From sequence record MF327006: 64,000 nt of DNA. One strand, given 5' to 3'. This stretch comes from Shigella phage Sf20. The notes below the pieces were generated by a model. It saw nothing but the letters and a program-made list of their open reading frames with translations. It had not been told where the DNA came from and did not search any database. The first letter of the stretch is position 1; each line of letters begins with the position of its first letter. Below are positions 9,401 through 61,691 of the stretch, piece by piece. Both the position numbers and the translations under genes were made by a program.

Positions 9401-9580
9401 AACAGCGAATTGTTCCACGGACTTAAAGCAAGCGAACGAAGATTTGCAATGAGTCCACTGTTTGACCAGTCGGCGGTAACATTCTCTATGTTCCGTGAGC
9501 TTGTGGATAAACGGTTGAAGGATAATATAGGGAATCCACGCGATCCGAAGAATCCGACACAGAGGAAAATTAATGGCTAA
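6494..9580 (+). CDS. 7: baseplate wedge subunit gp7, 1028 aa
   Basis: Size (T4 gp7 is about 1030 aa) and synteny. Confidence 0.85.
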   Translation: MIKAPSVTSLTIEKLSANQAYITWDDVGENFFYFVELAETRTRDGEIIPVDELSWVNLGYTAEQNWFEDKNLFPEYYYKFRVAVAAEGFEQSKWVETEEFQTFKTNAYNFSMMREFNLANEFIKEKFTYDNREYVKFNTDLIQASLMKEDFVFSPEYANMTNISNYIVVDENFHEIQDHIEKVCTDINRTMLAEMNGVLYLFERFQPIVKVSNDKGQSWKAYKAFNDRVGNPVSRTCVYQSKTTTYVLGYDRIFYGRQASDTRWSADDVRFSDDTITFAKVGDENDLGFDVEVFGVFSRLTGDTTKYAEAMACSDDYLWVGAKDVIRRIRLKNTPVDTVQGSPTFGEKIFDPDVIRVTGNDKAVIQKMDVIDGKLLVFVTGEVKQRYQDPTKPENVVPSDDAGVYLIGSDGLSFQRVFGNTPQEREYIQHGFSNMSTNGDEVFISHYNHHFESILPDPETAAKYELGEAVKYSQEPTYLTDKKIHQTTFRASYDDLRIWELGPQAYYNEADYTWMRRNGVRVWITNDNRPLVVYPEVIYTQEVDTSGILDQNRINREVYDKGTVTCYLNNVKFEGFKQYASGVMFHKNTGEIIGFYQFNYRVRDQVGVYWKPTNVAFVAELQNQVREVPWVPVHYDREQDPDLRPLLNKMTPDSFLLENENFRKFSEYYLQFLSDGSGTYYNKLKNLIKNKYPREKDAYEYLWSEMNKRNIYADKNKRDAVVRFFESRKSDFYSTKGVEASYKFLFKLLYNEDVEIEVESQAGLEYDIVVSSTNIDEDIVGRTIYTPTGRANVTYLEREYEGGRLRWRVTIHNLIGRFEEGQVIKSEKTAFEGMILVGVRGKELLSSSIDYINRSRSQYTMKIKSALPVSRYANDVMRFVHPVGFGFIGVTLLTMFINSGLSMKHTETIIQSLKNYKFDSGLPSVYPDRVADLDVDGNIKKDPLTGKALYLTSPLIGDEFPVPPEYDQENSELFHGLKASERRFAMSPLFDQSAVTFSMFRELVDKRLKDNIGNPRDPKNPTQRKING

Positions 9581-10568
9581 TGAAAATAGTGTGATCTATC
9601 GCTCAATCATTACTAGTAAATTCAGAACGGAAAAACTTCTGAATTTCTATAATTCTGTAGGCGATGGGGCAAATCAAATTACAATTTATGGAACGTTTGG
9701 ACGTTCGGAGCCGTGGTCAGAAAACGAAAAAGAGGTGGGCTTTGCCCCACCTTATCCGACCGATTCAACGGCTGGTGTTGTTGACATGTGGACCCATATG
9801 ATGGGGGCGGTTAAGATTAACAAATCACTTCTTGATGCGGTTATCCCTCGTAAAGATTGGGGTGATACCGGACAGGATAACCCGCGCACATTCTTTATCA
9901 ATGACATTGTTGTTGTCAACTCAGCACCATATAACCGAACTGATGTTGGTAGCGGCTGGATGGTGTATCGCGTAACCGATGTTCCTGATCGCGGTTACTG
10001 CTCGATTTCAAGCATTGACGCTAAAGTAGAGTGTTTGAAGTTGGGCGGAAAGTGGACACCCACTCATGAATCAATTGCGCCACCTGTAGGAAAGGGCGAT
10101 TCTATTGATATGGGTGATGGGTATCGTTGGGAATATCTGTACACAATTCCACCTGATGCGGCGATCAACCGTTGCACCAATGAACATATTGTTGTACCGT
10201 TCCCCGATGAACTGCGACAAGATCCGGCGCGTTGGGGTTATGACAATGTGATCACCTGGTATAATGACTATAATCTGCTTTATCGGCTGAAAGTAGTAAC
10301 TTTGCGTTTTCAGGCTTATATGGACTCTGCGCAATTCCCAACTACCGCGTTAGTGGGTAATACTGGTTTCCGTCAGTTAAGCATTATCCTTAACCCATTG
10401 GAAAAGAAAGCACGCCCTAGCGATCCAGACGTTAAAGCGGTTGAAGATAAGTACCGACCGCAAGACTTAGAGCCACACTCAGGCGAAATGATCTACATGG
10501 AAAACCGACAACCTATCGTTCGGTCATTAGATCAAACAGAACTTGTTTCTGTATTGTTTGAGTTCTAA
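9573..10568 (+). CDS. 8: baseplate wedge subunit gp8, 331 aa
   Basis: Size and synteny. Confidence 0.8.
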   Translation: MANENSVIYRSIITSKFRTEKLLNFYNSVGDGANQITIYGTFGRSEPWSENEKEVGFAPPYPTDSTAGVVDMWTHMMGAVKINKSLLDAVIPRKDWGDTGQDNPRTFFINDIVVVNSAPYNRTDVGSGWMVYRVTDVPDRGYCSISSIDAKVECLKLGGKWTPTHESIAPPVGKGDSIDMGDGYRWEYLYTIPPDAAINRCTNEHIVVPFPDELRQDPARWGYDNVITWYNDYNLLYRLKVVTLRFQAYMDSAQFPTTALVGNTGFRQLSIILNPLEKKARPSDPDVKAVEDKYRPQDLEPHSGEMIYMENRQPIVRSLDQTELVSVLFEF

Positions 10569-10582
10569 GTGTATGATTTAAA

Positions 10583-10616
10583 AGCCAATTCGAGAGAGTT
10601 GGCTTTTTCTGTTTTT
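10583..10616 (+). terminator. rho-independent terminator after gene 8
   Basis: Hairpin AGCCAA-ttcgagagag-TTGGCT followed by TTTTTCTGTTTTT. Confidence 0.65.
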
Positions 10617-10620
10617 GGTG

Positions 10621-10648
10621 TTGACAATCTTGTCTGGTAAGGTATAAT
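10621..10648 (+). promoter_or_regulatory. sigma70-type promoter TTGACA-N16-TATAAT
   Basis: TTGACA at 10621, TATAAT at 10643, then GGAGG RBS and ATG 10678. Confidence 0.65.
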
Positions 10649-10677
10649 GCTCACATCTAAACAACGGAGGATAAATT

Positions 10678-10935
10678 ATGGCACGTCGTAAATTTACAGA
10701 TAATTGTGAAGCAATTCAGGTATCCCCTTGCGGTTGGGATGTGATCGCGAACGGTGAAAAGATCGGAGAGATCATCGATCATACTCATTCATCACTAGCC
10801 GATTACACCGATGAACTATGGGAGGGTATCAACTTCATGAATGACACTAAACGATTCAAGACTATCGACGAAGCTATCTATTTTGTGTATAATCCAACTT
10901 TCGGTATGTGGGGAACTAGAAAATGGCACGCGTAA
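10678..10935 (+). CDS. hypothetical protein, 85 aa (first gene of inserted cassette)
   Basis: ORF with RBS GGAGG; begins MAR like the next two genes. Confidence 0.5.
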   Translation: MARRKFTDNCEAIQVSPCGWDVIANGEKIGEIIDHTHSSLADYTDELWEGINFMNDTKRFKTIDEAIYFVYNPTFGMWGTRKWHA

Positions 10936-11252
10936 ACATTAAACTACACTACACAATGGGTAAACCAAAACATCCGATGCATAAAGTCTTTTGGGGATTG
11001 CGTCTTCAAGAAAAATTTTATGATAACTACTGGTTTTGTGACCATGATAAGAAGTGGCATTCTCAAGATGAAGTTAATGCGATGATGGAACAGGGTATAA
11101 AATTTAATTACTCTAATTATGACCATAGCATTACTTGTATTCGAAAATTGAAACGGTTTATTCGAAAGAATCCGCAATTTAAAAACTTTGTGTTCTTTAT
11201 GTCTCATGTTTATTTGGGGCATAGCGTTACAGTAACAGCAAAGGTTAAATAA
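10923..11252 (+). CDS. hypothetical protein, 109 aa
   Basis: ORF overlapping upstream stop by 13 nt; His/Trp-rich. Confidence 0.5.
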   Translation: MARVNIKLHYTMGKPKHPMHKVFWGLRLQEKFYDNYWFCDHDKKWHSQDEVNAMMEQGIKFNYSNYDHSITCIRKLKRFIRKNPQFKNFVFFMSHVYLGHSVTVTAKVK

Positions 11253-12091
11253 TGGCACGACTTTCTAAACAAGAACAAAAATTACACGATCGGGTGATGG
11301 AGTTGATTAATTCAGATCGCCCATTGACATATGAAGAAAAAGAATTTTGCTATAATAACTATCATGGCGATGGTCTAGGCGGTTCAGGTGCATTCTTTAC
11401 CCCAGAAGGGCTTGCATGGGATTTTACCATCGATGCACATTGCACAGGAAAAGTATTAGATCTTTGTGCTGGGATCGGTCGCTTATCTTTTTGTATGTTA
11501 CATCGTTGTAAGCCAGAAAAGATCGTATGCGTCGAACTCAATCCAGAATTTGCGCGGATTGGCAAGCGACTATTACCGGAGGCAGAATGGATCACCAGCG
11601 ATGTATTCGAATTTGAGTCAACCGAAAAATTCGATGTGGTGATCAGCAATCCACCCTTCGGGAAAATCAATACAACCGACACAAAGGATGTATTTGAGTA
11701 CACTGGTGGCGAATTTGAATTTAAGGTTATGACATTAGGCCAGAAGTTTGCCGATGTAGGTTATTTTATTGTTCCTTCTGGTTCCGCTGGTTTTGCCTAT
11801 TCCGGCAGACCTTATTATGACGGGACCATGAAGTCTAATAAATATCTAAAATGGAGCAAACAAACTGGTTTGGTGACTTATGCCGGATGTGGGATCGATA
11901 CATCAATCTATCGCGATGAATGGCATAGTACCAGCGTTTTAACAGAAGTGGTTGAGGTTCGGTATTACGAGAAAGAAGCCGTAGAAGCGCCTAAATCACG
12001 TCCTAACGAACAAATAGAAGAAAGTAAGGAGATTACCTTACCGAAACAGGAAAGCGAGTCTGGGACGCTCTCAGATTTGTTTGACATTTAA
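11252..12091 (+). CDS. SAM-dependent amino-methyltransferase (NPPF motif; putative N6-adenine or N4-cytosine DNA MTase), 279 aa
   Basis: Motif I VLDLCAGIGR and motif IV VISNPPFG in gamma-class order; start overlaps upstream stop (TAATG). Confidence 0.55.
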   Translation: MARLSKQEQKLHDRVMELINSDRPLTYEEKEFCYNNYHGDGLGGSGAFFTPEGLAWDFTIDAHCTGKVLDLCAGIGRLSFCMLHRCKPEKIVCVELNPEFARIGKRLLPEAEWITSDVFEFESTEKFDVVISNPPFGKINTTDTKDVFEYTGGEFEFKVMTLGQKFADVGYFIVPSGSAGFAYSGRPYYDGTMKSNKYLKWSKQTGLVTYAGCGIDTSIYRDEWHSTSVLTEVVEVRYYEKEAVEAPKSRPNEQIEESKEITLPKQESESGTLSDLFDI

Positions 12092-12095
12092 TTAT

Positions 12096-12123
12096 AAGCC
12101 GTCCTTGTGGGCGGCTTTTTTGT
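12096..12123 (+). terminator. rho-independent terminator after the MTase cassette
   Basis: Hairpin AAGCCGTCC-ttgt-GGGCGGCTT followed by TTTTTTG. Confidence 0.65.
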
Positions 12124-12131
12124 ATGTATTT

Positions 12132-12139
12132 TATAAATA
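12132..12139 (+). promoter_or_regulatory. T4-type late promoter core TATAAATA upstream of gene 9
   Basis: Exact TATAAATA 28 nt upstream of ATG 12167. Confidence 0.6.
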
Positions 12140-12166: not shown

Positions 12167-13021
12167 ATGGCACAAGTTCCAAAGAAAAGAATAGACACAG
12201 GTACTGTCGGCAATCCATCGACTGGCGATATCTTATATGATGGCGGTAATAAAATTAACGATAACTTTGACTCAATATATGACGCATTTGCCGATCAGCG
12301 GTTTAAAGACGTAGACCACGGCGTGGGAAGAATGGTTATTCATGCAACCGGATACTATCAGAAGCATCCACGTCAAAGCTACGCGGGTTCCGCTGTTGAG
12401 ATTGGGAGTCTACACGATATCGATACAACTCAAGGAGCACTTATTGCTATTCTACCTAAAGCAAAAGTCGGCGAGGGTGTTGTATTCATAAATAGTAACG
12501 GTAGCCTTTCAACGACGACACCGCTCAATATTCGAACTCAAGCAGGTGATTCTATTAGCGGGTATTCCGGTGATGCTACAATAACACAACCATTTTCAAA
12601 AGTCACTGTTTGGTGTACTGCCGTTGAAGGTAGTCGCGTAACATGGCGATTGGGTATCGAAAGTATGTTTACCGATACAACAACGCCATTAGATAAAACA
12701 GTTAACGTAACTGGAGTAGCAACAAACGTTGCTATTGCCGCAAAAACAGAATACGTTTCCATCAAATTATTAACTACCGCTAGCAATACATCCGGTTCAA
12801 AAATGCGTTCAAGTGAAACGCTACTGATGATTGATTCTAAAGCCGGAAAAGTTTATGCGACGGAATATGCAGTTTTGCAGAAGACAGAAGATGAACTATA
12901 CACGGTTCGTTATTTCATCGGTTCCGGCGATAAAGTATATGCAGAGTATAAGGCTACTGGCGAAAATATTCGTTTAGCAGTTAAAGCCGTAGACACTATT
13001 AAAATCGGGGTTGCTACATGA
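12167..13021 (+). CDS. 9: baseplate wedge / long tail fiber connector gp9, 284 aa
   Basis: N-terminus PKKRIDTGTVGNPSTGDILYDGGNKIN matches remembered T4 gp9 N-terminus. Confidence 0.85.
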   Translation: MAQVPKKRIDTGTVGNPSTGDILYDGGNKINDNFDSIYDAFADQRFKDVDHGVGRMVIHATGYYQKHPRQSYAGSAVEIGSLHDIDTTQGALIAILPKAKVGEGVVFINSNGSLSTTTPLNIRTQAGDSISGYSGDATITQPFSKVTVWCTAVEGSRVTWRLGIESMFTDTTTPLDKTVNVTGVATNVAIAAKTEYVSIKLLTTASNTSGSKMRSSETLLMIDSKAGKVYATEYAVLQKTEDELYTVRYFIGSGDKVYAEYKATGENIRLAVKAVDTIKIGVAT

Positions 13022-35137: not shown

Positions 35138-35413
35138 TCAGGACATTGCCCGTTTGAATGCGTCCATTATAACAGTGTTATTTGGCTTGTCAACACGTTT
35201 TTGAACTTTATTTTTAAATTTTTTGTTGATGTGGTGTTTACGATAAACAACCTTTTCACGGTTGGCGTAAGCCTCGCGTGCGTCTTTTACCATCAACCAT
35301 GCCTTAGCCGCATCTTGTCCGCTGATCCCGCCAATCTTCTTAGCAATATCAACAAAATTAAGACCGTGGTCTTCGCGTAGCATGTAAACCATTAACGCTG
35401 TTTTCTTGTCCAT
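35138..35413 (-). CDS. hypothetical HTH-like protein, 91 aa
   Basis: Starts at internal ATG of the 127-aa track ORF; that ATG overlaps the stop of the upstream small gene (TGATG); helix-turn-helix-like LNFVDIAKKIGGISGQDAAKAW. Confidence 0.45.
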   Translation of the reverse strand: MDKKTALMVYMLREDHGLNFVDIAKKIGGISGQDAAKAWLMVKDAREAYANREKVVYRKHHINKKFKNKVQKRVDKPNNTVIMDAFKRAMS

Positions 35414-35610: not shown

Positions 35611-35737
35611 ACTTCACCTCATACATTCATAAACACAACAACGAATAATACAGTAACAGTTATCAACGCCATTTTCAACCCCATATTCATAATATTTTCT
35701 TCGCCTCACTATGGACAGTAGCATGTCGATGCGTGCC

Positions 35738-35765
35738 ATTATAGGCATCTAAATCGCTCTGTCAA
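35738..35765 (-). promoter_or_regulatory. sigma70-type promoter TTGACA-N16-TATAAT (minus strand)
   Basis: Plus-strand attata at 35738 and tgtcaa at 35760, immediately downstream of the hoc terminator. Confidence 0.6.
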
Positions 35766-37304: not shown

Positions 37305-38030
37305 TTACTTGAGTGTGTGGAATTGGCTATGTTTAGTCTCTCGCACCTTGACAGACCCATCGCGTTTGATATAATAGATCAGTGACTTGAGGGTGTCGTG
37401 TACATACGCGTGCGGGAAACGCTCTGGATACTTCTTCCAATCTGGAGTATTAACGATCCAGTCGAAAATCCACCACGGGCAGGAGTAGTAACCACGACCG
37501 CCACCGATCAAGCAAATGGTCGGACGGAAGCCAGTAAGATCGCAAAATGAATCAGTGTCATGTGCTGGGGAACGATGCTCTGCTTCGTTAGAGAAAATGT
37601 TGGCTACCGGAGATTCCACTTTAACTTCCGGTGCTTCTTCAACATCTGACTTAACTTCTTCGACCACTGGTTCAACTGCTGGAGATTCTTCTTTTGTTTC
37701 TTCAATGGCGATCTCAGGTTCTTTCATTGCTTCAACCAGAGACGGATCAACTTCGTCGAATACCACTTTATCATCTGCGGTGTCTGCTGCCAGAATAAGA
37801 TCGTTAATACTGGTTCCTTCTGCCGGAGTTTCTTCTTCCATTTCGGAAGCCAGTTTAGTTAATTCGGTTTCTACGAACTCGATCATGTTCTCTAGTGATA
37901 AAGTCTTTTTGACCTTAATATCAAATTGTTTTGCGTAGTCAGCTAATTCTGTTTTAGCTGTTTTCTGTGCTTCTTTGTCGTCGGACGCCGCAATAGCGCG
38001 GAGTTCTTCGAAATATTCTTTATCAAACAT
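37305..38030 (-). CDS. inh: Inh-like protein (position of T4 prohead protease inhibitor), 241 aa
   Basis: Synteny between hoc and uvsW; acidic N-terminal half; C-terminal W-rich segment CPWWIFDWIV resembling Hoc tail GWWVFDEIV; RBS GGAGAA. Confidence 0.5.
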   Translation of the reverse strand: MFDKEYFEELRAIAASDDKEAQKTAKTELADYAKQFDIKVKKTLSLENMIEFVETELTKLASEMEEETPAEGTSINDLILAADTADDKVVFDEVDPSLVEAMKEPEIAIEETKEESPAVEPVVEEVKSDVEEAPEVKVESPVANIFSNEAEHRSPAHDTDSFCDLTGFRPTICLIGGGRGYYSCPWWIFDWIVNTPDWKKYPERFPHAYVHDTLKSLIYYIKRDGSVKVRETKHSQFHTLK

Positions 38031-51650: not shown

Positions 51651-51679
51651 ATTATAGGGGATCACCGATCCCCTGTCAA
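51651..51679 (-). promoter_or_regulatory. PeSL-like cassette promoter 1: TTGACA - GGGGATCGGTGATCCCC - TATAAT
   Basis: Plus attata 51651-56, 17-nt hairpin spacer, tgtcaa 51674-79. Confidence 0.6.
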
Positions 51680-51686
51680 CAACTTT

Positions 51687-52205
51687 TTAGTTATTTTTTA
51701 ATTGTTCATCTTGCAATAATGCAATCACATGCTGGCGATGTTCTTCCGATTGAGGTACACCGAAAAAGTTTGTTTTGTAGAAATACTCTAATCGGTCTTC
51801 TCGTGTGCTCTCTTCCATCATGATCGCGGGTAGTCCGAGATTTCGGAAACGTCGCTTTTCTGCTGGCGTAAAATCACTGTAATACAACATAGAATCATCA
51901 TTACAAGCAATGCTAAACTCATCCTTCATAAAGGAGAATATTGCGTTTAAACGCTGTTTACCGTCCACGATTTCGATCTCATAGCGAGAGCCATCATCAA
52001 TCTTAGCCATTGCGATAGCACCAACCGGAAAATCATTAATCAGGTTTTCAATAAACATACGTTTGTTTTCGGTGTCCCATACTAAAGGACGCTGATAATC
52101 TGGGTTCATGTTGATATAGCCATCTTCTAACCATGCTTCGTAAACAGAGATAACAAAGTTTTTAGTATTGGTATAGTAGCGGCGTTTAGGCGTTAAACGG
52201 TTCAT
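51687..52205 (-). CDS. DUF262 / ParB-like nuclease-domain protein, 172 aa
   Basis: Motifs DYQRPLVW and DGKQRL; ATG 52205 one nt after upstream stop, RBS AGGAG. Confidence 0.55.
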   Translation of the reverse strand: MNRLTPKRRYYTNTKNFVISVYEAWLEDGYINMNPDYQRPLVWDTENKRMFIENLINDFPVGAIAMAKIDDGSRYEIEIVDGKQRLNAIFSFMKDEFSIACNDDSMLYYSDFTPAEKRRFRNLGLPAIMMEESTREDRLEYFYKTNFFGVPQSEEHRQHVIALLQDEQLKNN

Positions 52206-52206
52206 G

Positions 52207-52536
52207 TTATAGTCTCCTGAATGGGTCATCACGTAAATCAATATCTTTTAAGAACTCATCCCATGAATGGCGGATATTGTTCTTAATTCTCCAGATGAGC
52301 GCAGGGATTGAACGCTCTCCCATCTGGAAGTATGGATCATATGATCCGTATGCCCAATATGCTACTACAATTCCACAATCAGAGCAATAGTATTCTATTT
52401 CACTTGCTGGCGACCAAAGTCCATCAATATGATCGGTGATCTTGCTTTCGATGTTATGGCTATGACAATCAGGGCAACGGATGCAATGACCTTGTTTATC
52501 GTAATTTGACGTTAGCGAATACTTAAACAATCTCAT
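52207..52536 (-). CDS. zinc-ribbon protein, 109 aa
   Basis: Cys clusters CIRCPDC and CSDCG; start overlaps upstream stop (TAATG). Confidence 0.55.
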   Translation of the reverse strand: MRLFKYSLTSNYDKQGHCIRCPDCHSHNIESKITDHIDGLWSPASEIEYYCSDCGIVVAYWAYGSYDPYFQMGERSIPALIWRIKNNIRHSWDEFLKDIDLRDDPFRRL

Positions 52537-53252
52537 TATAGATCCTTATTTGCTTCAAATACTGCCTTTGCGAATCCTCGCGGGGTAAGTGACCTTATAG
52601 TCTTTGTTTTCGTTCCTTTCCCGCCTAGCTTAGAATGCTGTTTACTGTACCCTTTATTAATCTGCAACGGTTTCTTTTCTGGCATTATAAAGCCTTGTCC
52701 GGTCCATAAGCAAGTCTTTTTTGGGTACATATCACGGGCGGCAATATACTCAGGAAACGTAGGATGCTTATCATCTTCCGGCAAATAACCGCCATATTCC
52801 CACGGATGGAACATATAATCAGGCTTACGCCACATGCTAGAGATAACGCTTACAGGATTCTCTATCATGTAGGGAACTCCTAGCCATTCACCCAAATAAG
52901 CGGTTATTTTAGCTGCCCGTACATCATGAACTTGAATCAATGGTCCTTGTTCTCGTTTCTTTCGTTCAAAGTGCGCAGCGCCACTAACAGCTAAATTGGT
53001 GCACGGTGGGAATGCAAAGATAATATCCGGTTTCCCCCATTCAAGGTCCATTGCTCTTTCCAGCCAGTTCAAATCAATCCATGTGTTTACATAGGTAATG
53101 TTTGGATGTTCAAATCTGGTATTATACTTTTTGTATGTGCCGTGGTCGCCATCATCAGCATTAAAGCAGATCACCTTATGACCTGCTTTAGCCCATTCTA
53201 GCCCCATTATCCCCGATCCGTCAAAGTTACAGAATATTAATTTTTGTTTCAT
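52536..53252 (-). CDS. C5-cytosine methyltransferase-like protein lacking a target-recognition domain, 238 aa
   Basis: Motif I FCNFDGSG, FNADD, motif IV FPPCTNLAVSGA (PC), motif VI MIENPV; RBS AAAGGGG. Confidence 0.5.
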   Translation of the reverse strand: MKQKLIFCNFDGSGIMGLEWAKAGHKVICFNADDGDHGTYKKYNTRFEHPNITYVNTWIDLNWLERAMDLEWGKPDIIFAFPPCTNLAVSGAAHFERKKREQGPLIQVHDVRAAKITAYLGEWLGVPYMIENPVSVISSMWRKPDYMFHPWEYGGYLPEDDKHPTFPEYIAARDMYPKKTCLWTGQGFIMPEKKPLQINKGYSKQHSKLGGKGTKTKTIRSLTPRGFAKAVFEANKDL

Positions 53253-53494
53253 ATACGCCCCTTTAATCCAACACAGATTTTAGAAGGTTCTTTGCCGTGC
53301 CACATTAAGTAAAGTCCGTTAATGCGGCCTTGTTTTGTATATGATTCTTTTCTGATCTTCTTATAGTGTCGTGTTTCCTCAGCCGATTGTTTAGAATACC
53401 AATCATAAAGGAAGATGAACAAAGGCCACCCATTAGCGGCCTTAATGCAGTTATTCAAAAATTCCTTATTGCGTTTAATTAATTTTCTTTTCAC
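53249..53494 (-). CDS. hypothetical protein, 81 aa (GTG start)
   Basis: GTG start overlaps upstream stop (GTGA); no internal ATG near the start. Confidence 0.4.
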   Translation of the reverse strand: MKRKLIKRNKEFLNNCIKAANGWPLFIFLYDWYSKQSAEETRHYKKIRKESYTKQGRINGLYLMWHGKEPSKICVGLKGRI

Positions 53495-53742
53495 GCTGCC
53501 CCCATTGGTTTGATAGTAACAGAATCTAAAAGACCTTTGTTAGCCAGTTCGCGGCAAGTTTTCAGATCCGCAACTTCCCAACCAGCCGCAATCAGGTTAT
53601 CAATCAGGCTGTTAGCAACTTCTTCGCTCATGAAAGAGCACTGTTTGCCGATGGTGTAGCGTACACGCTGTAATTTCAGTTTACGGAAGCCTTTAACGTT
53701 CAGGTCTTTAGCGATTTTCTTTGCGGTTTCGATGTTAGCCAT
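53491..53742 (-). CDS. hypothetical protein, 83 aa (starts MANIE)
   Basis: First gene after cassette promoter 2; RBS AGGAGA; first 16 nt of CDS identical to the 70-aa gene at 51614. Confidence 0.5.
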   Translation of the reverse strand: MANIETAKKIAKDLNVKGFRKLKLQRVRYTIGKQCSFMSEEVANSLIDNLIAAGWEVADLKTCRELANKGLLDSVTIKPMGAA

Positions 53743-53782
53743 TGTTTGATTCTCCTAAGTGGTATCTCGTCTTGATGGTTGT

Positions 53783-53811
53783 ATTGTAGGGGAGTTATCC
53801 TCCCCTGTCAA
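53783..53811 (-). promoter_or_regulatory. PeSL-like cassette promoter 2: TTGACA - GGGGAGGATAACTCCCC - TACAAT
   Basis: Plus attgta 53783-88, 17-nt hairpin spacer, tgtcaa 53806-11. Confidence 0.55.
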
Positions 53812-53825
53812 CACTTTTTATAAAA

Positions 53826-53993
53826 TTATTTGTTAATTTCTGGTGCGTTGCTAGGATAGTAACCTTCTTTAACACCCAGATATTTTGCAACCATCCCTAC
53901 AATCTTCTGTGCTACTACAATGTCAAATTTCAGATAATCTTCGCCGTGGGTTTCAATGATATATGCTTCACATGCTGCTTTAGTCTCGAACAT
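53826..53993 (-). CDS. small hypothetical protein, 55 aa (paralog copy A)
   Basis: MFETKAACEAYIIETHGEDYLKFDIVVAQK..; about 85 percent nt identity by eye to copy at 57593-57760. Confidence 0.55.
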   Translation of the reverse strand: MFETKAACEAYIIETHGEDYLKFDIVVAQKIVGMVAKYLGVKEGYYPSNAPEINK

Positions 53994-54026
53994 TTTGATT
54001 CTCCTATTTCGTTTCGTTATGTGTGT

Positions 54027-54055
54027 ATTATAGGGGATCTCCCGATCCCCGTCAA
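54027..54055 (-). promoter_or_regulatory. PeSL-like cassette promoter 3: TTGACG - hairpin GGGATCGGGAGATCCCC - TATAAT
   Basis: Plus attata 54027-32, 17-nt hairpin spacer, cgtcaa 54050-55. Confidence 0.55.
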
Positions 54056-54069
54056 CAACTTTTTTAAAA

Positions 54070-54351
54070 TTATTCGTGATTAGTTTCGATGTTGTGCATT
54101 TTGCACCAGTTCAGCCAATCACCCAGATCCTGATAGTTAATGCTTTTATCTGCTGCCATCGTTTTTGTCTTGATACCCATATGTGCGTTATGAGTAAGCA
54201 TTTTTACAGTGAACTCAATTTTATCACCTTTAGCTTTAACATCAACCAGTTTGGTCCACTGGCTACCAGCGCCGCGAATGTTCATACCAACGATGTTTCC
54301 GATGTATGCTTCTTTGTTTTTCAGGATTTCGGTTGCTTTGATGAATTTCAT
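54070..54351 (-). CDS. hypothetical protein, 93 aa
   Basis: ORF starting directly downstream of cassette promoter 4 and conserved leader. Confidence 0.5.
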   Translation of the reverse strand: MKFIKATEILKNKEAYIGNIVGMNIRGAGSQWTKLVDVKAKGDKIEFTVKMLTHNAHMGIKTKTMAADKSINYQDLGDWLNWCKMHNIETNHE

Positions 54352-54384
54352 TTTTGATTCTCCAGTTCGTTTCGGTATGTGTGT

Positions 54385-54413
54385 ATTATGCTATGTTCTT
54401 ACTTTGGTGTCAA
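54385..54413 (-). promoter_or_regulatory. PeSL-like cassette promoter 4 (degenerate): TTGACA - N17 - CATAAT
   Basis: Plus attatg 54385-90, tgtcaa 54408-13; spacer not palindromic. Confidence 0.45.
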
Positions 54414-54421
54414 CAACTTTT

Positions 54422-54691
54422 TTAGATATTTTCAGAAATAAATTTTAAAACTTGACGTAAATGTTTCTCATCTTTGATAGTCGCCGGAAGTTCTTCTTTT
54501 ACTTCCTGTGCAAGATAGATATTTCCGTTCCAAGTGAAAGATCCGTCTTCGTTTACGCGATAGCTGAACATCCACTCGCAATCATTTTCGATTTCATATA
54601 CACACAGAAGGGTGTAATCGTTAAAGCTATTGATTTCAAGGTCGAAGCCGTGACGTTTTGCAAAGTTGGTAGTGGTTTTAGTCAGAGCCAT
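54422..54691 (-). CDS. hypothetical protein, 89 aa
   Basis: ORF downstream of cassette promoter 5. Confidence 0.5.
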   Translation of the reverse strand: MALTKTTTNFAKRHGFDLEINSFNDYTLLCVYEIENDCEWMFSYRVNEDGSFTWNGNIYLAQEVKEELPATIKDEKHLRQVLKFISENI

Positions 54692-54731
54692 TGTTTGATT
54701 CTCCTAAATGGTATCTCGTTTCGATGGGTGT

Positions 54732-54760
54732 ATTATGCTATAGGCCGGATCTGGTGTCAA
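54732..54760 (-). promoter_or_regulatory. PeSL-like cassette promoter 5: TTGACA - CCAGATCCGGCCTATAG - CATAAT
   Basis: Plus attatg 54732-37, 17-nt spacer, tgtcaa 54755-60. Confidence 0.5.
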
Positions 54761-54770
54761 TGCCTTTTTT

Positions 54771-54801
54771 AAAAAAGCCGACACTAAGGTCGGCACATTT
54801 T
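54771..54801 (-). terminator. terminator hairpin GCCGACACTAAGGTCGGC
   Basis: Hairpin 54777-54794 flanked by A/T runs, just downstream of stop at 54800; identical hairpin at 55279. Confidence 0.6.
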
Positions 54802-55111
54802 AAAAATTCTTGCTATATATGCAAGCCTCATAATCTAGAGGATGACCGCCAATCCTACCCGGCTTAATATTCCAACCGCATCGATATTTGCTGACCATGC
54901 TAACAGTTTCGGTTCTTAGAGCATTTCTTTGCAAATCATACCCCCTAAATTCTTGTCTATAAGGACAGTCCGCTTTGCAAGTTGGCGGTTCTACGTCATT
55001 TAGAGGGTCGGAAGCAGTTGGCTTTATTATCAATTCTTTGTTTGCAATAATCATAAGCACATCCCATTGAAGACAATTTAACATCTTCGCAATAAGTGTT
55101 GAATCCGTCAA
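54800..55111 (-). CDS. hypothetical Cys-containing protein; start uncertain (TTG at 55111, ATG at 55084 or 55054)
   Basis: 103-codon ORF whose 5-prime part overlaps the 63-aa ORF in another frame; possible frameshift or overlapping gene. Confidence 0.35.
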   Translation of the reverse strand: MTDSTLIAKMLNCLQWDVLMIIANKELIIKPTASDPLNDVEPPTCKADCPYRQEFRGYDLQRNALRTETVSMVSKYRCGWNIKPGRIGGHPLDYEACIYSKNF

Positions 55112-55187
55112 ACACGATCACTTCGTATTTGACTCCATCAGCGATAGCTTTTACTTTATACCATCCATGCTTGTATAAAATCTTCAT
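54996..55187 (-). CDS. small Cys-rich protein, 63 aa
   Basis: ATG 55187 with GAGGA RBS downstream of cassette promoter 6. Confidence 0.45.
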   Translation of the reverse strand: MKILYKHGWYKVKAIADGVKYEVIVFDGFNTYCEDVKLSSMGCAYDYCKQRIDNKANCFRPSK

Positions 55188-55219
55188 CTTTATTTCCTCG
55201 ATCTCGTTTCGATGGGTGT

Positions 55220-55249
55220 ATTATGCTATAGGCTAGACCAGGTTGTCAA
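55220..55249 (-). promoter_or_regulatory. PeSL-like cassette promoter 6: TTGACA - N18 - CATAAT
   Basis: Plus attatg 55220-25, tgtcaa 55244-49. Confidence 0.5.
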
Positions 55250-55271
55250 CAACTTTTTTAATTTTTTGGAA

Positions 55272-55300
55272 ATAAAAAGCCGACACTAAGGTCGGCTAAT
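55272..55300 (-). terminator. terminator hairpin GCCGACACTAAGGTCGGC (second exact copy)
   Basis: Hairpin 55279-55296 followed on minus strand by TTTTTATTT. Confidence 0.6.
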
Positions 55301-55304
55301 AAAA

Positions 55305-55613
55305 TCATTTAGACAAGTAATCATTCTGTGCAATACGGTCGGCGTATGCTGGTGTTATGTCAATCGCCAGCACTTTAACGCGTGCTTTCTTGCGACCTGG
55401 GTTTTCTCGTAACCAGTGCTCATGACCGTGAACATTTTTATACTTTGATGCTTCTTCAAATGTACGGATCGGACCTGGGTAATCAGCGTAAAGGATCTCT
55501 AGGTCTTCGGTGATGTAAAAATATACATCGTAATTACTGTTCTCTAGTTTAAGCAGAGAGTTGCGAAATTGTGGTAAATTCTCGCGGGTAAATTCAACTA
55601 CAAGATTTTTCAT
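55305..55613 (-). CDS. HxHW-family small protein, paralog A, 102 aa
   Basis: Signature YDVYFYITEDL ... HGHEHW ... VLAIDI; RBS GAGGA. Confidence 0.55.
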   Translation of the reverse strand: MKNLVVEFTRENLPQFRNSLLKLENSNYDVYFYITEDLEILYADYPGPIRTFEEASKYKNVHGHEHWLRENPGRKKARVKVLAIDITPAYADRIAQNDYLSK

Positions 55614-55639
55614 AGTGATATCCTCATTCAGATAGATTA

Positions 55640-55660
55640 AAAGGGGGCTTAACGCCCCGT
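55640..55660 (-). terminator. terminator-like hairpin GGGGC-ttaac-GCCCC
   Basis: Hairpin 55644-55658 downstream of stop at 55664. Confidence 0.5.
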
Positions 55661-55663
55661 ATA

Positions 55664-55951
55664 TTAAAACAGTCCTTCCTGTACACCGTAGTAGAGTTCA
55701 TCGCTGATAATTTCATTAATGCGACGGTGTGCATATTCCTGATTTGCGAAGTTATCAGCAAGTTCTACTTTAGTTTCGCCGTCATGAGTCCATTTAGTGA
55801 TAACTTTACCATCTGCAAATTTGAAGTTGAACTCTTTAGCTACTGCATCGCGTACCAGACGTGCGAACTTGTTGTTACGGATTGCATTATCGGTTTCGTG
55901 TGCAGCGTGAGCGAATTTGTTAACTTTCAGAGTGATAGTAATGTATGCCAT
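55664..55951 (-). CDS. hypothetical protein, 95 aa (paralog of the gene at 58978-59289)
   Basis: Shared segment LVRDAVAKEFNFKF vs EVRKALAKEFNTKI. Confidence 0.5.
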   Translation of the reverse strand: MAYITITLKVNKFAHAAHETDNAIRNNKFARLVRDAVAKEFNFKFADGKVITKWTHDGETKVELADNFANQEYAHRRINEIISDELYYGVQEGLF

Positions 55952-55997
55952 AATTTGATTCTCCTAGTTAGAAAGTGTATCTCGTTTCGATGGGGAT

Positions 55998-56026
55998 ATT
56001 ATGCTATATCCCCGATCCGGTGTCAA
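55998..56026 (-). promoter_or_regulatory. PeSL-like cassette promoter 7: TTGACA - CCGGATCGGGGATATAG - CATAAT
   Basis: Plus attatg 55998-56003, 17-nt spacer, tgtcaa 56021-26. Confidence 0.5.
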
Positions 56027-56032
56027 CACTTT

Positions 56033-56311
56033 TTATAAAATAATTTTTTGATATTTTTCTATGATGTTCGTGTAAGTCACATCAACCGCTAGCACCGTTG
56101 CTTCGAATCCACCGTTTAGCCAATGGCTATGATCATGATCGTGAAAGAAACCTAGACCAGTACGAAGACCTTCTTTATATTCTGCGCGTACATTCAGTTT
56201 GTCGTCGATAAACAGATAAAACCATGAATTTTTACTAGGATTGATGATACAACCTTTCAGATTAGGGAGAATATCACGACTAAGAATAAACTTATCACCT
56301 ACTTTGAGCAT
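56033..56311 (-). CDS. HxHW-family small protein, paralog B, 92 aa
   Basis: Signature WFYLFIDDKL ... HDHSHW ... VLAVDV; start at ATG 56311 with RBS GAGGAAAA (ORF-track extension trimmed). Confidence 0.5.
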   Translation of the reverse strand: MLKVGDKFILSRDILPNLKGCIINPSKNSWFYLFIDDKLNVRAEYKEGLRTGLGFFHDHDHSHWLNGGFEATVLAVDVTYTNIIEKYQKIIL

Positions 56312-56325
56312 AATATTTTCCTCAC

Positions 56326-56634
56326 TTATAAAGTTTGACCGTTGTTTTTCGCGTAATGCTGAATGCGTGCTTGATCTGCTTCCGCTGGTGATAGATTCCA
56401 TGCGATCACTACAACTTCTGACGCATCATGATCATTATCACTTACCCAATGATTATGATTCATACAATTGTTTGCTATCGCGTGAGCAAATGATCTCATT
56501 ACCGGAGACGTATAATCATAGTAACGGATTTTCAGATTTTCATCAACGTACAAGTAGATCGTATACGGCTTATATTCAGTAACCAGTAACAGACAGTTAC
56601 GCAATTCTGGGAAAATCTTTTTAGTTAATTTCAT
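56326..56634 (-). CDS. HxHW-family small protein, paralog C, 102 aa
   Basis: Signature YTIYLYVDENL ... HNHW ... VIAWNL; start at ATG 56634 (N-terminus MKLTKKIFPEL parallels paralog A). Confidence 0.5.
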   Translation of the reverse strand: MKLTKKIFPELRNCLLLVTEYKPYTIYLYVDENLKIRYYDYTSPVMRSFAHAIANNCMNHNHWVSDNDHDASEVVVIAWNLSPAEADQARIQHYAKNNGQTL

Positions 56635-56635
56635 T

Positions 56636-56866
56636 TTATAATCCTCGGTCGCGGCTATAGTAAACGGTACGCCATACAATTTCATGTTTCGTGTCGCTCC
56701 AGCACACGATCTCATTTACTCTTAAATCTTTGTTATCAACAAAAGATGAACATTGTGACGCTTCTTTCATCATTTTATCTGCTGTTTTCTCATCAAATAC
56801 AGCACAGATTTCTTTATACACTCGATAATCTTTGAATTGACTCTGAATACCCATAATTAACACCAT
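56636..56866 (-). CDS. hypothetical protein, about 76 aa (paralog of the gene at 56814-57077); start uncertain
   Basis: Shared segment FKDYRVYKEICAVFDEKTADKMMKEASQC vs FKEYKAYQQILRVYAPEFAEKMMEDASKC. Confidence 0.4.
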   Translation of the reverse strand: MVLIMGIQSQFKDYRVYKEICAVFDEKTADKMMKEASQCSSFVDNKDLRVNEIVCWSDTKHEIVWRTVYYSRDRGL

Positions 56867-57077
56867 TCCAACCAATTGTTTTTGAGAAAACGTTTATCCA
56901 CTGTTGAGTGTAACATGTTTCTTTCCATGATACAATACGAGTAGAATAATGGTTTTTGTTTCCAGAAAAGGACGGGCATTTTGATGCATCTTCCATCATC
57001 TTTTCGGCGAACTCTGGTGCGTATACTCGCAGGATCTGTTGATATGCTTTGTATTCTTTAAATTTGCTCATAATCAT
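56814..57077 (-). CDS. hypothetical protein, 87 aa
   Basis: ATG 57077; 3-prime end overlaps the start of the downstream paralog in another frame. Confidence 0.45.
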   Translation of the reverse strand: MIMSKFKEYKAYQQILRVYAPEFAEKMMEDASKCPSFSGNKNHYSTRIVSWKETCYTQQWINVFSKTIGWNGVNYGYSESIQRLSSV

Positions 57078-57336
57078 TCACTACCTTATCAGCTTCTTTT
57101 GTTGTTTTTACATCAACTGCGATAACTCGTAAAGGTTCGTCATGGTTCCACCAGTGGTCATGAATATCAGCTTGTGATTTATCACCAAAGGAATCACGAA
57201 TATCATTTTTACATTTATAGCTAATGTGACCTTCATAGTCAACATAAAGGTAATTATCGAAAATCGGCGTTTTTAAGATCATACCGAAAAATCTTTCTTT
57301 GTGTGTCTTATCCAGCGTTGCAGTAATTCGCATCAT
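57058..57336 (-). CDS. HxHW-family small protein, paralog D, 92 aa
   Basis: Signature NYLYVDYEGH ... IHDHWW ... VIAVDV; RBS AAGAGGA. Confidence 0.55.
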   Translation of the reverse strand: MMRITATLDKTHKERFFGMILKTPIFDNYLYVDYEGHISYKCKNDIRDSFGDKSQADIHDHWWNHDEPLRVIAVDVKTTKEADKVVNDYEQI

Positions 57337-57348
57337 AATATATTCCTC

Positions 57349-57528: not shown

Positions 57529-57560
57529 TTTGATTCTCCGTTTGTTGTCTTGATGGGAGT

Positions 57561-57589
57561 ATCTTACTACTCCCTTTAATCATTGTCAA
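57561..57589 (-). promoter_or_regulatory. PeSL-like cassette promoter 8: TTGACA - N17 - TAAGAT
   Basis: Plus atctta 57561-66, tgtcaa 57584-89; GGGAGTA..TACTCCC hairpin in leader. Confidence 0.45.
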
Positions 57590-57592
57590 CTA

Positions 57593-60202: not shown

Positions 60203-61691
60203 CGAATACCTCTTTTACTGTATTTGCAGTGGTCTTGTCGTAGCGAATACGTTTGATGATTGGGAGAAATAAAGAGAACTCCGGTTCATCTTCTTTACGT
60301 GATTTGCTGCGAATGTACCCGTTGCATGTCATCTCAATGACTTTTCCAATCAGGTTATGACGGTCAGCCCATAACATTTCTCGGTCGAGTTCATTTCGAC
60401 GATCGAACGGAATTACACGTTCAGTACCATCATCACCTTTTTCGGTTGTAGTGTCGGTTAATCCCGATCCGGTGTTAGTCATCATTCGTCCGCACGCACT
60501 ACGGACAGTAAAACCGCCTACCTTATTGGGGTCTTTACTATGCGGATATACATCAACAATTTCCGCGTCGAAGTCAATCACTTCTTTAAATTTAACCTGA
60601 TCTTTACTACGGCGATCTTCAAATACACCATGTAAATTTTTAAGGATAATACCTTCTAAGCCCATGTTTACATAGCGATGATATACTTCGCGAGCTTCAT
60701 CTATATTGTTAACTACAGTGTTTTCGATTATCTGAACACGAGGATCGTTAAGTTCTTCAACAATCTGTTTTAGTTCTTCGAATCGATCTTTATATTGCTT
60801 CGTTGCTTTCTCGTTTCCGTAATACACATCACGGTCGATAACATCCCAGACAGTGTAAACAATACATTGGGCTTCTTCTTTTGGAATAGTTCCTTTCAGT
60901 GATTTGTTGAGGATACCATTTCCGGTCTGACGATCTGCAACAACGGATTCTTTTACTGCTTCCGCTACTGGCGTTAATGGCATTTCCTCTTCTTCAAATA
61001 TCCATGACAGAGTACCATCATAAACGCTTTCAACGAAGTTCTGCGCTGGTGTTTGCGAAAGGGTAGGCATATATACCAATTCCCCATCTAGAACAATTCC
61101 ACGGCCTCGTAGACGCTCTAGAACAGCAAACAAATCATCAAGTCCCTGATAGGTATTACCTGAACGGGTATAGATTGCTAATGTTTCCCCGTCAATATCA
61201 GCCATCCCACGAGCGCCATCGCTTTTAAGTTGTGCATACGCCGGATACTTGATATTAGCAATAGTCTTATCAGAACATGACGATGCAAGGTGGCACGGTT
61301 GCTGAGGGATCAGTTTCTTCCATACCTTGTTTGCAGTGGTAGCGGAACAACCACATTCCAGATCACGATTCAGGACCATCATTGCAACTTTAGCATCATC
61401 CTCTGACAAGCAAGTCAGAGTATCGGTAACTAGCTGTAATGCTGCATTACCAGTTACTTGACGCGTGGCAAGTTTATTTTTAAAGACCTGTAATGCACCG
61501 GATAAAGACAATACAGACGAATAGCGAGATGGTTTATCGTATTTCTTTACGCCAAACGTAACCTGTTTGCAATATGCCAGATAAAAGCATTCTTTCAGCG
61601 TTTCATTGCTTGCTGATTCTTTCAGAATCTTTTCTTTCAGCGATGTTTTGTCTGTTGCTGCAAGCTGATTAATGATATTAAGAATTGACAT
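60195..61691 (-). CDS. 30: ATP-dependent DNA ligase gp30, 498 aa
   Basis: Adenylation motif KSDGAR; N-terminus SILNIINQLA resembles remembered T4 ligase N-terminus; ORF-track GTG extension trimmed. Confidence 0.9.
   Translation of the reverse strand: MSILNIINQLAATDKTSLKEKILKESASNETLKECFYLAYCKQVTFGVKKYDKPSRYSSVLSLSGALQVFKNKLATRQVTGNAALQLVTDTLTCLSEDDAKVAMMVLNRDLECGCSATTANKVWKKLIPQQPCHLASSCSDKTIANIKYPAYAQLKSDGARGMADIDGETLAIYTRSGNTYQGLDDLFAVLERLRGRGIVLDGELVYMPTLSQTPAQNFVESVYDGTLSWIFEEEEMPLTPVAEAVKESVVADRQTGNGILNKSLKGTIPKEEAQCIVYTVWDVIDRDVYYGNEKATKQYKDRFEELKQIVEELNDPRVQIIENTVVNNIDEAREVYHRYVNMGLEGIILKNLHGVFEDRRSKDQVKFKEVIDFDAEIVDVYPHSKDPNKVGGFTVRSACGRMMTNTGSGLTDTTTEKGDDGTERVIPFDRRNELDREMLWADRHNLIGKVIEMTCNGYIRSKSRKEDEPEFSLFLPIIKRIRYDKTTANTVKEVFDV

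Follow-up and report, generated by a model that had tools for sequence, protein, structure and literature searches.

Between the late baseplate genes 8 and 9 of Shigella phage Sf20 (sequence record MF327006) stands a cassette of three open reading frames (ORFs), the third of which, ORF3, encodes a methyltransferase. The DNA analysed, here called the window, is a stretch of 64,000 nucleotides (nt) of this phage, and all positions are counted from its first letter. ORF3 may, with reasonable confidence, be read as an N6-adenine DNA methyltransferase that is made early, is tethered to the clamp and places a mark, probably against restriction, on phage DNA under replication. What we infer, namely clamp binding, a DNA substrate, adenine N6 as the target atom and an anti-restriction role, is not equally secure: binding of the enzyme's C-terminal tail to the gp45 sliding clamp is very probable, action on DNA is likely, and for anti-restriction as the role the balance is even.

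By nucleotide comparison with public records, the 2.1 kb around the cassette show 98.1% identity with Escherichia phage RB49 and 95-98% with 56 further records of at least 80% query coverage, all of them Krischvirus or unclassified RB49-like coliphages; by this measure the phage of the window is a Krischvirus. The methyltransferase ends in KQESESGTLSDLFDI and the DNA polymerase of RB49, gp43, in YEKVASLTDLFDI, and the last eight residues of the two (TLSDLFDI and SLTDLFDI) comprise six identities and two serine/threonine exchanges. In T4-type phages the C-terminus of gp43 is a peptide that binds the gp45 sliding clamp, and similar, interchangeable peptides are carried behind variable unstructured linkers by gp55 and gp33 (PMC2988020). 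Binding of T4 DNA ligase to gp45 was likewise suspected from the resemblance of its EPEGLDFLFD to EKASLDFLFG of gp43, and was then confirmed by isothermal titration calorimetry and a crystal structure (PMC6212786). ORF3 has the build of such a gp45 ligand, in that a short hydrophobic and acidic peptide, near-identical to the tail of the cognate polymerase, stands at the very end behind a divergent, unstructured linker. It differs from the gp43, gp55 and gp33 tails and the T4 ligase loop in its carrier, a methyltransferase, which is not among the partners named in these two papers (PMC2988020; PMC6212786). A screen of C-termini covered 463 mechanically listed ORFs of at least 50 amino acids (aa) from the window and from 1-50 kb of RB49, and only two of them, the methyltransferase and gp43, carry [ST]L-x(1,2)-[LMFV][FY] within their last nine residues. 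The C-terminus of RB49 Dam (...VYVTNVD) has no clamp motif.

It is quite improbable that the likeness of the tails is functionless, whether it arose by chance or is left over from a recombination that involved the 3' end of gene 43, and that the enzyme is a free, untethered orphan methyltransferase. Such an origin would suit the final four codons, stop included (TTT GAC ATT TAA), which are the same in the two genes, the position of gene 43 at a known recombination hotspot bordered by promoter-early stem-loop (PeSL) elements (PMC2839356), and the lack of a tail in some homologues. However, three of the eight motif codons upstream differ synonymously between the two genes (CTC/CTT, GAT/GAC, TTG/CTG), besides the two that encode the serine/threonine exchanges, and the match is therefore not a recent copy of DNA. 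Moreover, homologues at 64-70% identity keep the end (GTLTDLFDI, GSLSMFDI, TLDFVDFSEI) although their linkers have diverged beyond alignment, and GTL(S/T)DLFDI is conserved in P0002, which is 68-70% identical, despite a diverged linker. Independent lineages carry the motif of the other type of clamp at the same place, with an enrichment of about 20-fold over shuffled tails.

A motif of the same form occurs in the putative DNA ligase of the window (ORF 60195-61697, 500 aa), whose loop DGTLSWIFEEEE (DGTLSWIF) stands at the position of the gp45-binding loop of T4 ligase, 231-EPEGLDFLFD (PMC6212786). This loop follows the Krischvirus polymerase tail (SLTDLF) rather than that of T4. Across the 19,660 residues of the window ORFs, the pattern [ST]L[ST]x[LI]F is found at three sites, of which one is in the methyltransferase tail, one in the ligase loop and one in an ORF that is probably spurious. 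To judge from these sequences, a clamp-motif "dialect" of this form is common to the polymerase, the ligase and the methyltransferase of the lineage, which looks like a clamp-binding motif co-evolving across several clients.

Beyond Krischvirus, C-termini were sorted from 80 fetched loci of IMG/VR, and an exhaustive profile search gave 342 clusters (at 50% identity) with E below 1e-30. Read from these proteins, the type of tail follows the type of clamp, with gp45-type tails in T4-like phages and QLxLF-type tails together with a DnaN clamp. In addition to the TLSDLFDI of Krischvirus, T4-like phages of the RB16, KP15 and CfP1 types have (Q)NLFTFTIE, SDLFTFTIE or ATFDFRIE, and their polymerases end in SLNTLFGDDW, SLNDLFGDW and SLSDLFDF. 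A set of 38 contigs (L055-L092, 5.8-91 kb) encodes proteins in which a linker rich in proline, alanine and glutamate is followed by QLSLF, QLDLF, QADLF, QASLF, QLDIF, QPSLF, QMSLF or the like and two to five more residues. These endings recall QL[S/D]LF, the beta-clamp motif reportedly described by Dalrymple in 2001. The binding motif of the bacterial beta clamp has the consensus QL[S/D]LF and the canonical form Q-phi-x-[LM]-[FL] (PMC9690074; PMC11139829). It is present in 30 of the 38 methyltransferases and in 1 of 1165 control ORFs of the same loci. When 146 representatives with a complete domain and at most 50% mutual identity were compared, none of the 54 with an extension shorter than 10 aa carried the motif; among the 92 with a longer extension, the canonical motif lies within the last 20 residues in 29 (1.4 expected from shuffled extensions), and many further representatives end in near-motifs such as ADLFGEVA, PSLFPPE or TGLFAAA. 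Many homologues thus resemble known beta-clamp ligands, since QLSLF, QLDLF, QADLF or QLALF stands in the last 5-10 residues, the usual place of the motif, as in Pol II and Pol IV. The window protein differs from them in its gp45-type tail: its TLSDLF has no glutamine, and the beta-clamp motif is found in its homologues only.

The genomic surroundings of the homologues also point towards replication. The gene lies between the helicase gene 41 and the primase genes 61.1/61, at a distance of a few kb from gene 43, in RB16 (Pseudotevenvirus), KP15 (Slopekvirus) and Morganella phage Mm5. In RB49 the interval between genes 41 and 61 holds dc1 and dc2 in its place. Outside this replication cluster, the Krischvirus gene has its own perfect sigma-70 promoter, which would keep expression early, and flanking terminators, which would protect the late baseplate operons. 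A phage contig with a QxSLF tail (L075) and its cultured relative Rhizobium phage RHph_TM3_3_14B encode a DnaN clamp of their own, and the methyltransferase stands in a replication module with a helicase, an MT-A70 methylase and a Prim-Pol/primase protein. Directly upstream of the methyltransferase in L075 (9429-10001) and L104 (6704-7501) is a gene of the MT-A70 family or one labelled "modification DNA-methylase", its stop overlapping the start of the next; the pair lies a few kb downstream of the phage DnaN gene and could be a two-methylase module. Tail-less homologues of 236-247 aa and 54-61% identity are found in Citrobacter, Enterobacter, Salmonella and Klebsiella (L003-L008; L016-L037, near 10001-10711) as the last prophage gene beside chromosomal genes, which is a classic position of a moron or lysogenic-conversion gene. 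One of these proteins, P0040 from Citrobacter, is recorded as an identical sequence on 887 contigs. Studies of the "unknown DNA modification" of KP15 and KP27 list only Dam and Dcm and state that there are no other methyltransferases (PMC5219037; PMC3620542), and KP15_25, annotated as hypothetical (L012 9001-9777), is a clear member of the family with the tail SDLFTFTIE.

As for the enzyme itself, its motifs and predicted structure place ORF3 as an amino-methyltransferase of the N6-adenine fold group. The motifs X (GAFFTP, residues 46-51), I (VLDLCAGIGR, 68-77) and IV (NPPF, 133-136) follow one another in the linear order FxTP, glycine loop, NPP[FY], an order by which Malone, Blumenthal and Cheng (1995) reportedly defined the gamma class. 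In an alignment of 30 homologues, GAFFTP, LCAGIG (71-76) and the N, P, F and G of NPPFG (133-137) are invariant, with Pro135 nearly so, and the C-terminal half is also conserved (Y150...E232). The initial annotation had read motif I followed by NPPF as the arrangement of N6-adenine/N4-cytosine DNA methyltransferases. Both motifs are present and invariant in the family, and the amino-methyltransferase with the order X, I, IV stands; NPPF after motif I is, however, insufficient to argue for a DNA substrate. The Pfam check that it had proposed points both ways, with MTS (PF05175; RsmC, RsmD, PrmC) at 37.9 bits against a cut-off of 23 (E 1.8e-9, residues 60-143), Eco57I at 27.5 bits against 25.3 over residues 117-197 only, and N6_Mtase at 16.8 bits, below its cut-off of 20.4. 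Methyltransf_25 matches as well, and phrog_3820, "DNA methyltransferase", does so at 1.8e-117. The NCBIfam equivalog models remain far under their cut-offs (PrmC, the top match, 36.8 against 199.1 with E 2.9e-9; RsmC 28.7 against 295), and no solved structure was matched by sequence better than E ~1e-3 with either the single sequence or the family profile (RsmC, 2pjd, E 6.5e-4). Public labels of the gene vary accordingly between hypothetical protein, DNA methyltransferase, release factor glutamine methyltransferase and RNA methylase.

In the AlphaFold2 model, residues 1-240 have block means of the predicted local distance difference test (pLDDT) of 78-98, except for 58 at residues 41-50, with a predicted template modelling score of 0.80; residues 241-279 are disordered (pLDDT 45-56). 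The nearest folds in Foldseek are PH1948, M.TaqI and CamA, and the model aligns with DNA enzymes over 209-217 residues and with RNA enzymes over 166-172. As far as the model goes, the fold alone does not separate DNA from RNA enzymes, and the case for DNA is made because of the clamp-type C-terminal peptide, the switch of the tail with the type of clamp and the homologues in replication modules.

The same observations bear on the possibility of an RNA methyltransferase, which would modify rRNA or tRNA (m6A or m2G) and retune host translation early, the polymerase-like tail being incidental. RsmC and METTL5 also use NPPF-type motifs, the best sequence matches are RsmC, the putative RNA methyltransferase PH1948 and MTS, and existing labels agree ("similar to rRNA guanine-N2-methyltransferase" in RB49; "Predicted RNA methylase", COG2263, at the Joint Genome Institute). 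An RNA enzyme, on the other hand, would have no reason for a clamp peptide, still less for one that is kept while the linker diverges and that switches from gp45-type to QLxLF with the clamp present; the homologues in replication modules, the equivalog scores far below their cut-offs and the longer alignment of the model with DNA methyltransferases also speak against it. METTL5 and PH1948 (COG2263) and RsmC are matched at only E ~1e-3, over the core alone, and are without the conserved C-terminal half of the family, its N-terminal helices with GAFFTP and the clamp tail. Enzymes of the METTL5, PH1948 and RsmC type act on rRNA, and METTL5 needs the partner TRMT112. With these points taken together, the RNA enzyme has only a slim probability.

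A protein methyltransferase is less probable again, to the point of being very improbable. It would be a HemK/PrmC-like enzyme acting on glutamine or lysine, perhaps of a replisome or clamp-associated protein to which the tether would bring it, and is as such compatible with clamp binding. NPPF/NPPY is common to glutamine methyltransferases, PrmC leads the NCBIfam matches and several GenBank records label the gene "release factor glutamine methyltransferase"; yet the PrmC score is far below its cut-off, the Eco57I model of Pfam is over its own, and the GAFFTP motif X and the N-terminal helices better match HsdM and Eco57I-type DNA enzymes. The tail-less prophage copies, moreover, have no replisome-specific partner.

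For a clamp-tethered DNA methyltransferase, the following course of events may be proposed. Host sigma-70 RNA polymerase would transcribe the cassette right after infection, with the flanking terminators insulating it from the late baseplate transcripts. The product would consist of a catalytic domain of ~240 residues, a flexible linker of ~30 residues and the terminal TLSDLFDI mimicking the C-terminus of the phage polymerase. This peptide would dock the enzyme on the gp45 clamp and concentrate it on replicating or freshly replicated phage DNA, where methylation would most likely take place at adenine N6. In this way, hundreds of genomes with unmodified cytosine, made within minutes, could be marked before packaging, the most probable benefit being protection from the restriction-type defences of the next host.

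Several points weigh against this proposal. Gene 43 lies outside the window, and the polymerase tail used here is that of RB49, not of Sf20. The closest sequence profiles of ORF3 are models of RNA and protein methyltransferases (MTS, RsmC, PrmC, PH1948), and N6_Mtase falls short of its cut-off. The model has no separate target-recognition domain, its folded part being a single domain of ~240 residues, and the neighbouring cassette genes include no specificity-subunit gene; most long members of the family are likewise without a recognisable extra domain, and the Dickeya JA29-type protein alone, which lends the proposal weak support, has a C-terminal N6_N4_Mtase fragment. The RB16/KP15-type tails (LFTFTIE) resemble the tails of their own polymerases only loosely, the copies in Aeromonas phages, jumbo phages and phiM12 have no tail, and that of Mm5 ends in ...KQINVLEGI without a clear motif, so that tethering does not extend to every homologue. 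With a T4-type Dam already present in RB49, it is not evident why a second adenine methylase should be required. No biochemical, methylome or clamp-binding report for any member of the family was found in the literature searched. Finally, analysis of the Krischvirus TB34, whose methyltransferase is 98% identical to that of the window, by high-performance liquid chromatography and mass spectrometry gave "no detectable modified DNA" (PMC13390438), a result of little power against site-specific m6A because that paper never mentions methyladenine. In another observation from it, TB34 and the Krischvirus SAP are 99.96% identical, SAP being glucosyl-hydroxymethylated and TB34 having unmodified cytosine, with no known pathway genes (PMC13390438); both phages carry the cassette, and the difference is unrelated to it.

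A clamp-tethered DNA methyltransferase could also serve something other than anti-restriction, as a replication-coupled self or regulatory mark. It might, for example, let phage nucleases tell phage-replicated from host DNA in a phage without hydroxymethylcytosine, mark DNA for packaging or late transcription, or compete at gp45 and so tune the switch from replication to late transcription. The structural and comparative evidence is the same as for an anti-restriction enzyme, and the Dam of RB49, the absence of a hydroxymethylcytosine pathway from Krischvirus (PMC4041780; PMC13390438) and the activation of late transcription by gp45 (PMC2988020) would all suit such a mark. The tail-less copies at prophage ends, however, better fit classical roles of orphan methyltransferases, and loss of the gene or the tail in many lineages suggests an accessory adaptive role, typical of anti-defence genes; a self or regulatory mark is accordingly considered rather unlikely.

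Orphan methyltransferases of phages such as T4 Dam are non-essential and are thought to protect phage DNA from restriction. ORF3 resembles T4 Dam as an early-expressed methylase without a partner nuclease and differs from it in class, Dam being an alpha-class enzyme with DPPY and ORF3 having the gamma motif order with NPPF. A closer parallel to the proposed tethering is the eukaryotic coupling of DNMT1 to PCNA, the only link between a methyltransferase and a clamp cited in one review of sliding clamps (PMC9690074). In both cases a DNA methyltransferase would be recruited to newly replicated DNA by a short clamp-binding peptide, but this is an analogy only, as the enzyme class (C5-cytosine against probable N6-adenine), the motif (a PIP box in the eukaryotic case) and the clamp are different, and the eukaryotic role is maintenance, not phage counter-defence. 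No phage or bacterial methyltransferase described as a sliding-clamp client was found in the literature searched, and the word "methyltransferase" is absent from a 2024 review of the beta clamp (PMC11139829). What is already known comprises the cassette as annotated in dozens of records, the PeSL-type architecture and phage orphan methyltransferases as such; what appears to be new is that such an enzyme should carry a peptide for tethering to the clamp, exchanged according to which clamp is resident. That this is the first recognised family of DNA methyltransferases of prokaryotic viruses physically coupled to the replisome by a clamp-binding peptide, exchanged to fit the clamp of each phage, is put forward tentatively and remains doubtful.

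Orphan phage methyltransferases are usually pictured as free enzymes, and it is rarely asked how hundreds of genomes are completely methylated before packaging. A clamp-binding tail would give a concrete and testable answer, namely replication-coupled methylation. If the proposal is true, gp45 and the beta-clamp "tool-belts" gain a new class of client, and methylation confined to clamp-loaded DNA could be a replication-coupled, largely sequence-independent self mark for phages without hypermodified bases. It would also be a counterpart in function to DNMT1-PCNA, of independent origin in viruses, and would illustrate how a short linear motif is replaced when the interaction partner changes. The family spans T4-like coliphages, Klebsiella therapy phages, rhizobiophages and enterobacterial prophages, and its target would matter for predicting phage host range in relation to restriction-modification and bacteriophage exclusion (BREX)-type defences.

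The cassette that carries the gene is, by comparison of sequences, an insertion relative to other T4-like phages, old and fixed in Krischvirus. The initial annotation had described a terminator, a near-consensus promoter, three ORFs, a second terminator and the late promoter of gene 9, intercalated between genes that are adjacent in T4, and all of these were found in place (Table 1). Adjacency was confirmed on T2, a Tequatrovirus like T4, where the gap between genes 8 and 9 is 63 bp; Cronobacter phage leB, a Pseudotevenvirus, has 10 bp here, and Aeromonas phage 60AhydR15PP, a Tulanevirus, has 9 bp. The gap of T2 contains only a terminator followed by TATAAATA, and the junction is thus an ancestral boundary of transcription units; the same succession stands before gene 9 in Acinetobacter phage Acj61, and the cassette sits immediately upstream of this ancestral pair. 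The junction of Acj61 contains, upstream of this conserved pair, a Seg-like homing endonuclease of the GIY-YIG type in truncated form (L100 2533-2676), so that insertions appear to be tolerated here in more than one lineage.

The initial annotation had further regarded the cassette as a moron, to be given up if related phages held the same three genes here as core genes. Like a moron, it has its own promoter and terminator as a self-contained early-type unit and is absent from the same junction in T2, leB and 60AhydR15PP. It is, on the other hand, fixed in the genus: the same three genes sit here in 58 of 58 Krischvirus records, and a recent strain-specific moron is therefore excluded. Such conservation holds within Krischvirus and not for the T4-type core, as the other genera compared lack the three genes at this junction and distant relatives share only the methyltransferase. 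In two more distant metagenomic relatives (L101, L103), whose methyltransferase is 64% identical, this gene likewise stands at the gene 8/9 junction, preceded by a terminator and a sigma-70 promoter. The order in L101 is gp8, terminator, perfect promoter, methyltransferase and gp9, with no upstream ORF, and in L103 an unrelated ORF of 154 aa precedes the methyltransferase. Since the relatives have no upstream ORFs or different ones, what stays constant is the methyltransferase, with the small ORFs as interchangeable passengers. The GC content of the cassette (0.35-0.43) is not clearly distinct from that of its flanks and gives no sign of recent foreign origin.

Table 1. Features of the gene 8/9 cassette, its flanks and the ligase loop in the window.
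Feature	Position	Strand	Evidence or detail
Gene 8, baseplate wedge subunit, upstream flank	9573..10568	+	Pfam Phage-Gp8 1.4e-143, phrog_977
Terminator-like hairpin	10580..10607	+	12-pair stem, 4-base loop, T-run; annotated terminator in GEC-3S; kept in L101, L103
Sigma-70 promoter TTGACA-N16-TATAAT	10621..10648	+	-35 at 10621-10626, 16-bp spacer, -10 at 10643-10648; 12/12 matches
Shine-Dalgarno GGAGGA	10666-10671	+	Sequence
ORF1, 85 aa	10678..10935	+	phrog_16603 7.4e-61
ORF2, 109 aa	10923..11252	+	phrog_12630
ORF3, methyltransferase, 279 aa	11252..12091	+	ORF list, phrog_3820
Predicted methyltransferase catalytic domain, residues 1-240	11252..11971	+	Motif X GAFFTP 11387-11404; motif I VLDLCAGIGR 11453-11482; motif IV NPPF 11648-11659
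Disordered acidic/polar linker, residues 241-271	11972..12064	+	pLDDT 45-56; length and sequence vary among homologues; unconserved in 30-homologue alignment
C-terminal peptide TLSDLFDI and stop, proposed gp45 sliding-clamp-binding motif	12065..12091	+	Likeness to RB49 gp43 tail
Second terminator, cassette end	12096..12117	+	9 pairs, 6 G-C, then TTTTTG
TATAAATA late promoter of gene 9	12132..12139	+	Sequence
Gene 9, baseplate wedge/tail-fibre connector, downstream flank	12167..13021	+	Pfam T4_gp9_10_N 1.4e-40
TLSWIF loop of the putative DNA ligase (ORF 60195-61697, 500 aa)	60996..61013	-	Residue 229

Within the cassette, ORF1 and ORF2 overlap by 13 nt and the stop of ORF2 overlaps the start of the methyltransferase (TAATG). 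The record of phage GEC-3S independently annotates the same terminators and promoter, and an identical perfect sigma-70 promoter precedes the methyltransferase in L101. TTGACA-N16-TATAAT occurs four times exactly in the window, and six times when up to one mismatch is allowed (0.9 expected). By its form, the hairpin at 10580-10607 is intrinsic-terminator-like and closes the late transcript of genes 6-8; at the same time it supplies the stem-loop in a composite element of the PeSL type. PeSLs were described in RB49 and phi1 as composites of a stem-loop or terminator and a near-perfect sigma-70 early promoter that border non-core ORFs, and are proposed to prevent early transcription from spilling into late virion genes (PMC2839356; PMC4122927). 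By definition, their stem-loop may stand upstream of the -35 box (PMC2839356). This description covers the element at 10569-10677, as the stop of gene 8 (10568) is followed by the hairpin, the promoter, GGAGGA and the ATG at 10678, all between two genes. It is thus like a PeSL in its stem-loop, near-perfect promoter, Shine-Dalgarno and start codon, in heading non-core ORFs, in insulating early from late transcription and in its occurrence in the group of phages where PeSLs were defined.

It departs from the common RB49/phi1 type, a G(n)-loop-C(n) stem within an N17 spacer, in that its stem (AAAAGCCAA...TTGGCTTTT) lies upstream of the -35 box, as in the subclass allowed, and in that the stem reads AAAAGCCAATTC...GAGTTGGCTTTT and the spacer is 16 bp. 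The cassette is also fixed in its genus and lies inside the structural core rather than in a hyperplastic region, and the main text of PMC2839356 mentions neither the gene 8/9 locus nor a methyltransferase. The variable ORF content in L101, L103 and the window, together with the repetition of ATGGCACG at three starts, may be taken as indirect signs of PeSL-type mobility. Elsewhere in the window, nine near-perfect TTGACA-N17-TATAAT promoters (0.9 expected) precede small early ORFs at 51651-59363 on the minus strand, and five of them have a stem of the GGGG(A)..-loop-..CCCC type between the hexamers, equal to the classical RB49/phi1 PeSL repeats. The idea that the terminator-promoter at 10580-10648 is a copy of the GGGGATC...GATCCCC repeats at 51.6-59.4 kb was rejected, as there is no sequence repeat and only the broader definition fits.

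The two companions of the methyltransferase are probably independent, lineage-specific passengers and not its functional partners, to go by their distribution. Homologues of ORF1 occur only in Krischvirus-like sequences (one homologous cluster among 5.8 billion sequences). In the RB49 record (L002, AY343333, 1879-2125), ORF1 is split into ORF140w (51 aa) and ORF141w (32 aa) and the region is 11 bases shorter, through either a frameshift or an error of sequencing; the ORF of 85 aa is intact in the window and in most relatives. ORF2 has five homologous clusters only. One of these, at 68% identity, comes from an unrelated phage contig of 138 kb and has no methyltransferase in its vicinity (L093 4001-4330, GCA_040036505.1), and ORF2 thus moves independently between types of phage. 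In that contig it stands among small ORFs and adjoins a Big_2 protein of 1875 aa. The AlphaFold2 model of ORF2 has a pLDDT of 61.7, too low for interpretation or a structure search. The small ORFs adjoining the methyltransferase in RB16, KP15 and Mm5 include no homologue of ORF1 or ORF2. A functional system of three genes was accordingly considered and rejected, given that ORF2 occurs without the methyltransferase, that relatives have no upstream ORFs or different ones and that the RB16, KP15 and Mm5 genes have no such neighbours.

All three cassette ORFs begin with ATGGCACG, as the initial annotation had noticed, and three of the five occurrences of this 8-mer in the window (1.5 expected) are the consecutive starts at 10678, 10923 and 11252. 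The N-terminus MA(K/R)L(T/S)K of the methyltransferase family is kept from rhizobiophages to coliphages, and in the relative with the methyltransferase alone the gene begins with ATGGCTAGA; ORF1 and ORF2 of Krischvirus likewise begin with ATGGCACG (MAR). Of 29 large genes of the window, 4 have GCA as their second codon, so that ATGGCA is common, and three consecutive identical starts by chance are nevertheless unlikely. As a speculation, the small ORFs might have been inserted at the start of the methyltransferase by microhomology recombination, each event duplicating the 8-mer.

A further copy of ATGGCACG at 35732-35739 on the minus strand overlaps the -10 hexamer of a promoter at 35738-35765. 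This is one of three other exact TTGACA-N16-TATAAT sequences, at 35166-35193 (-), 35738-35765 (-) and 37348-37375 (+), which stand within an otherwise late region and may head further early cassettes among the structural genes.

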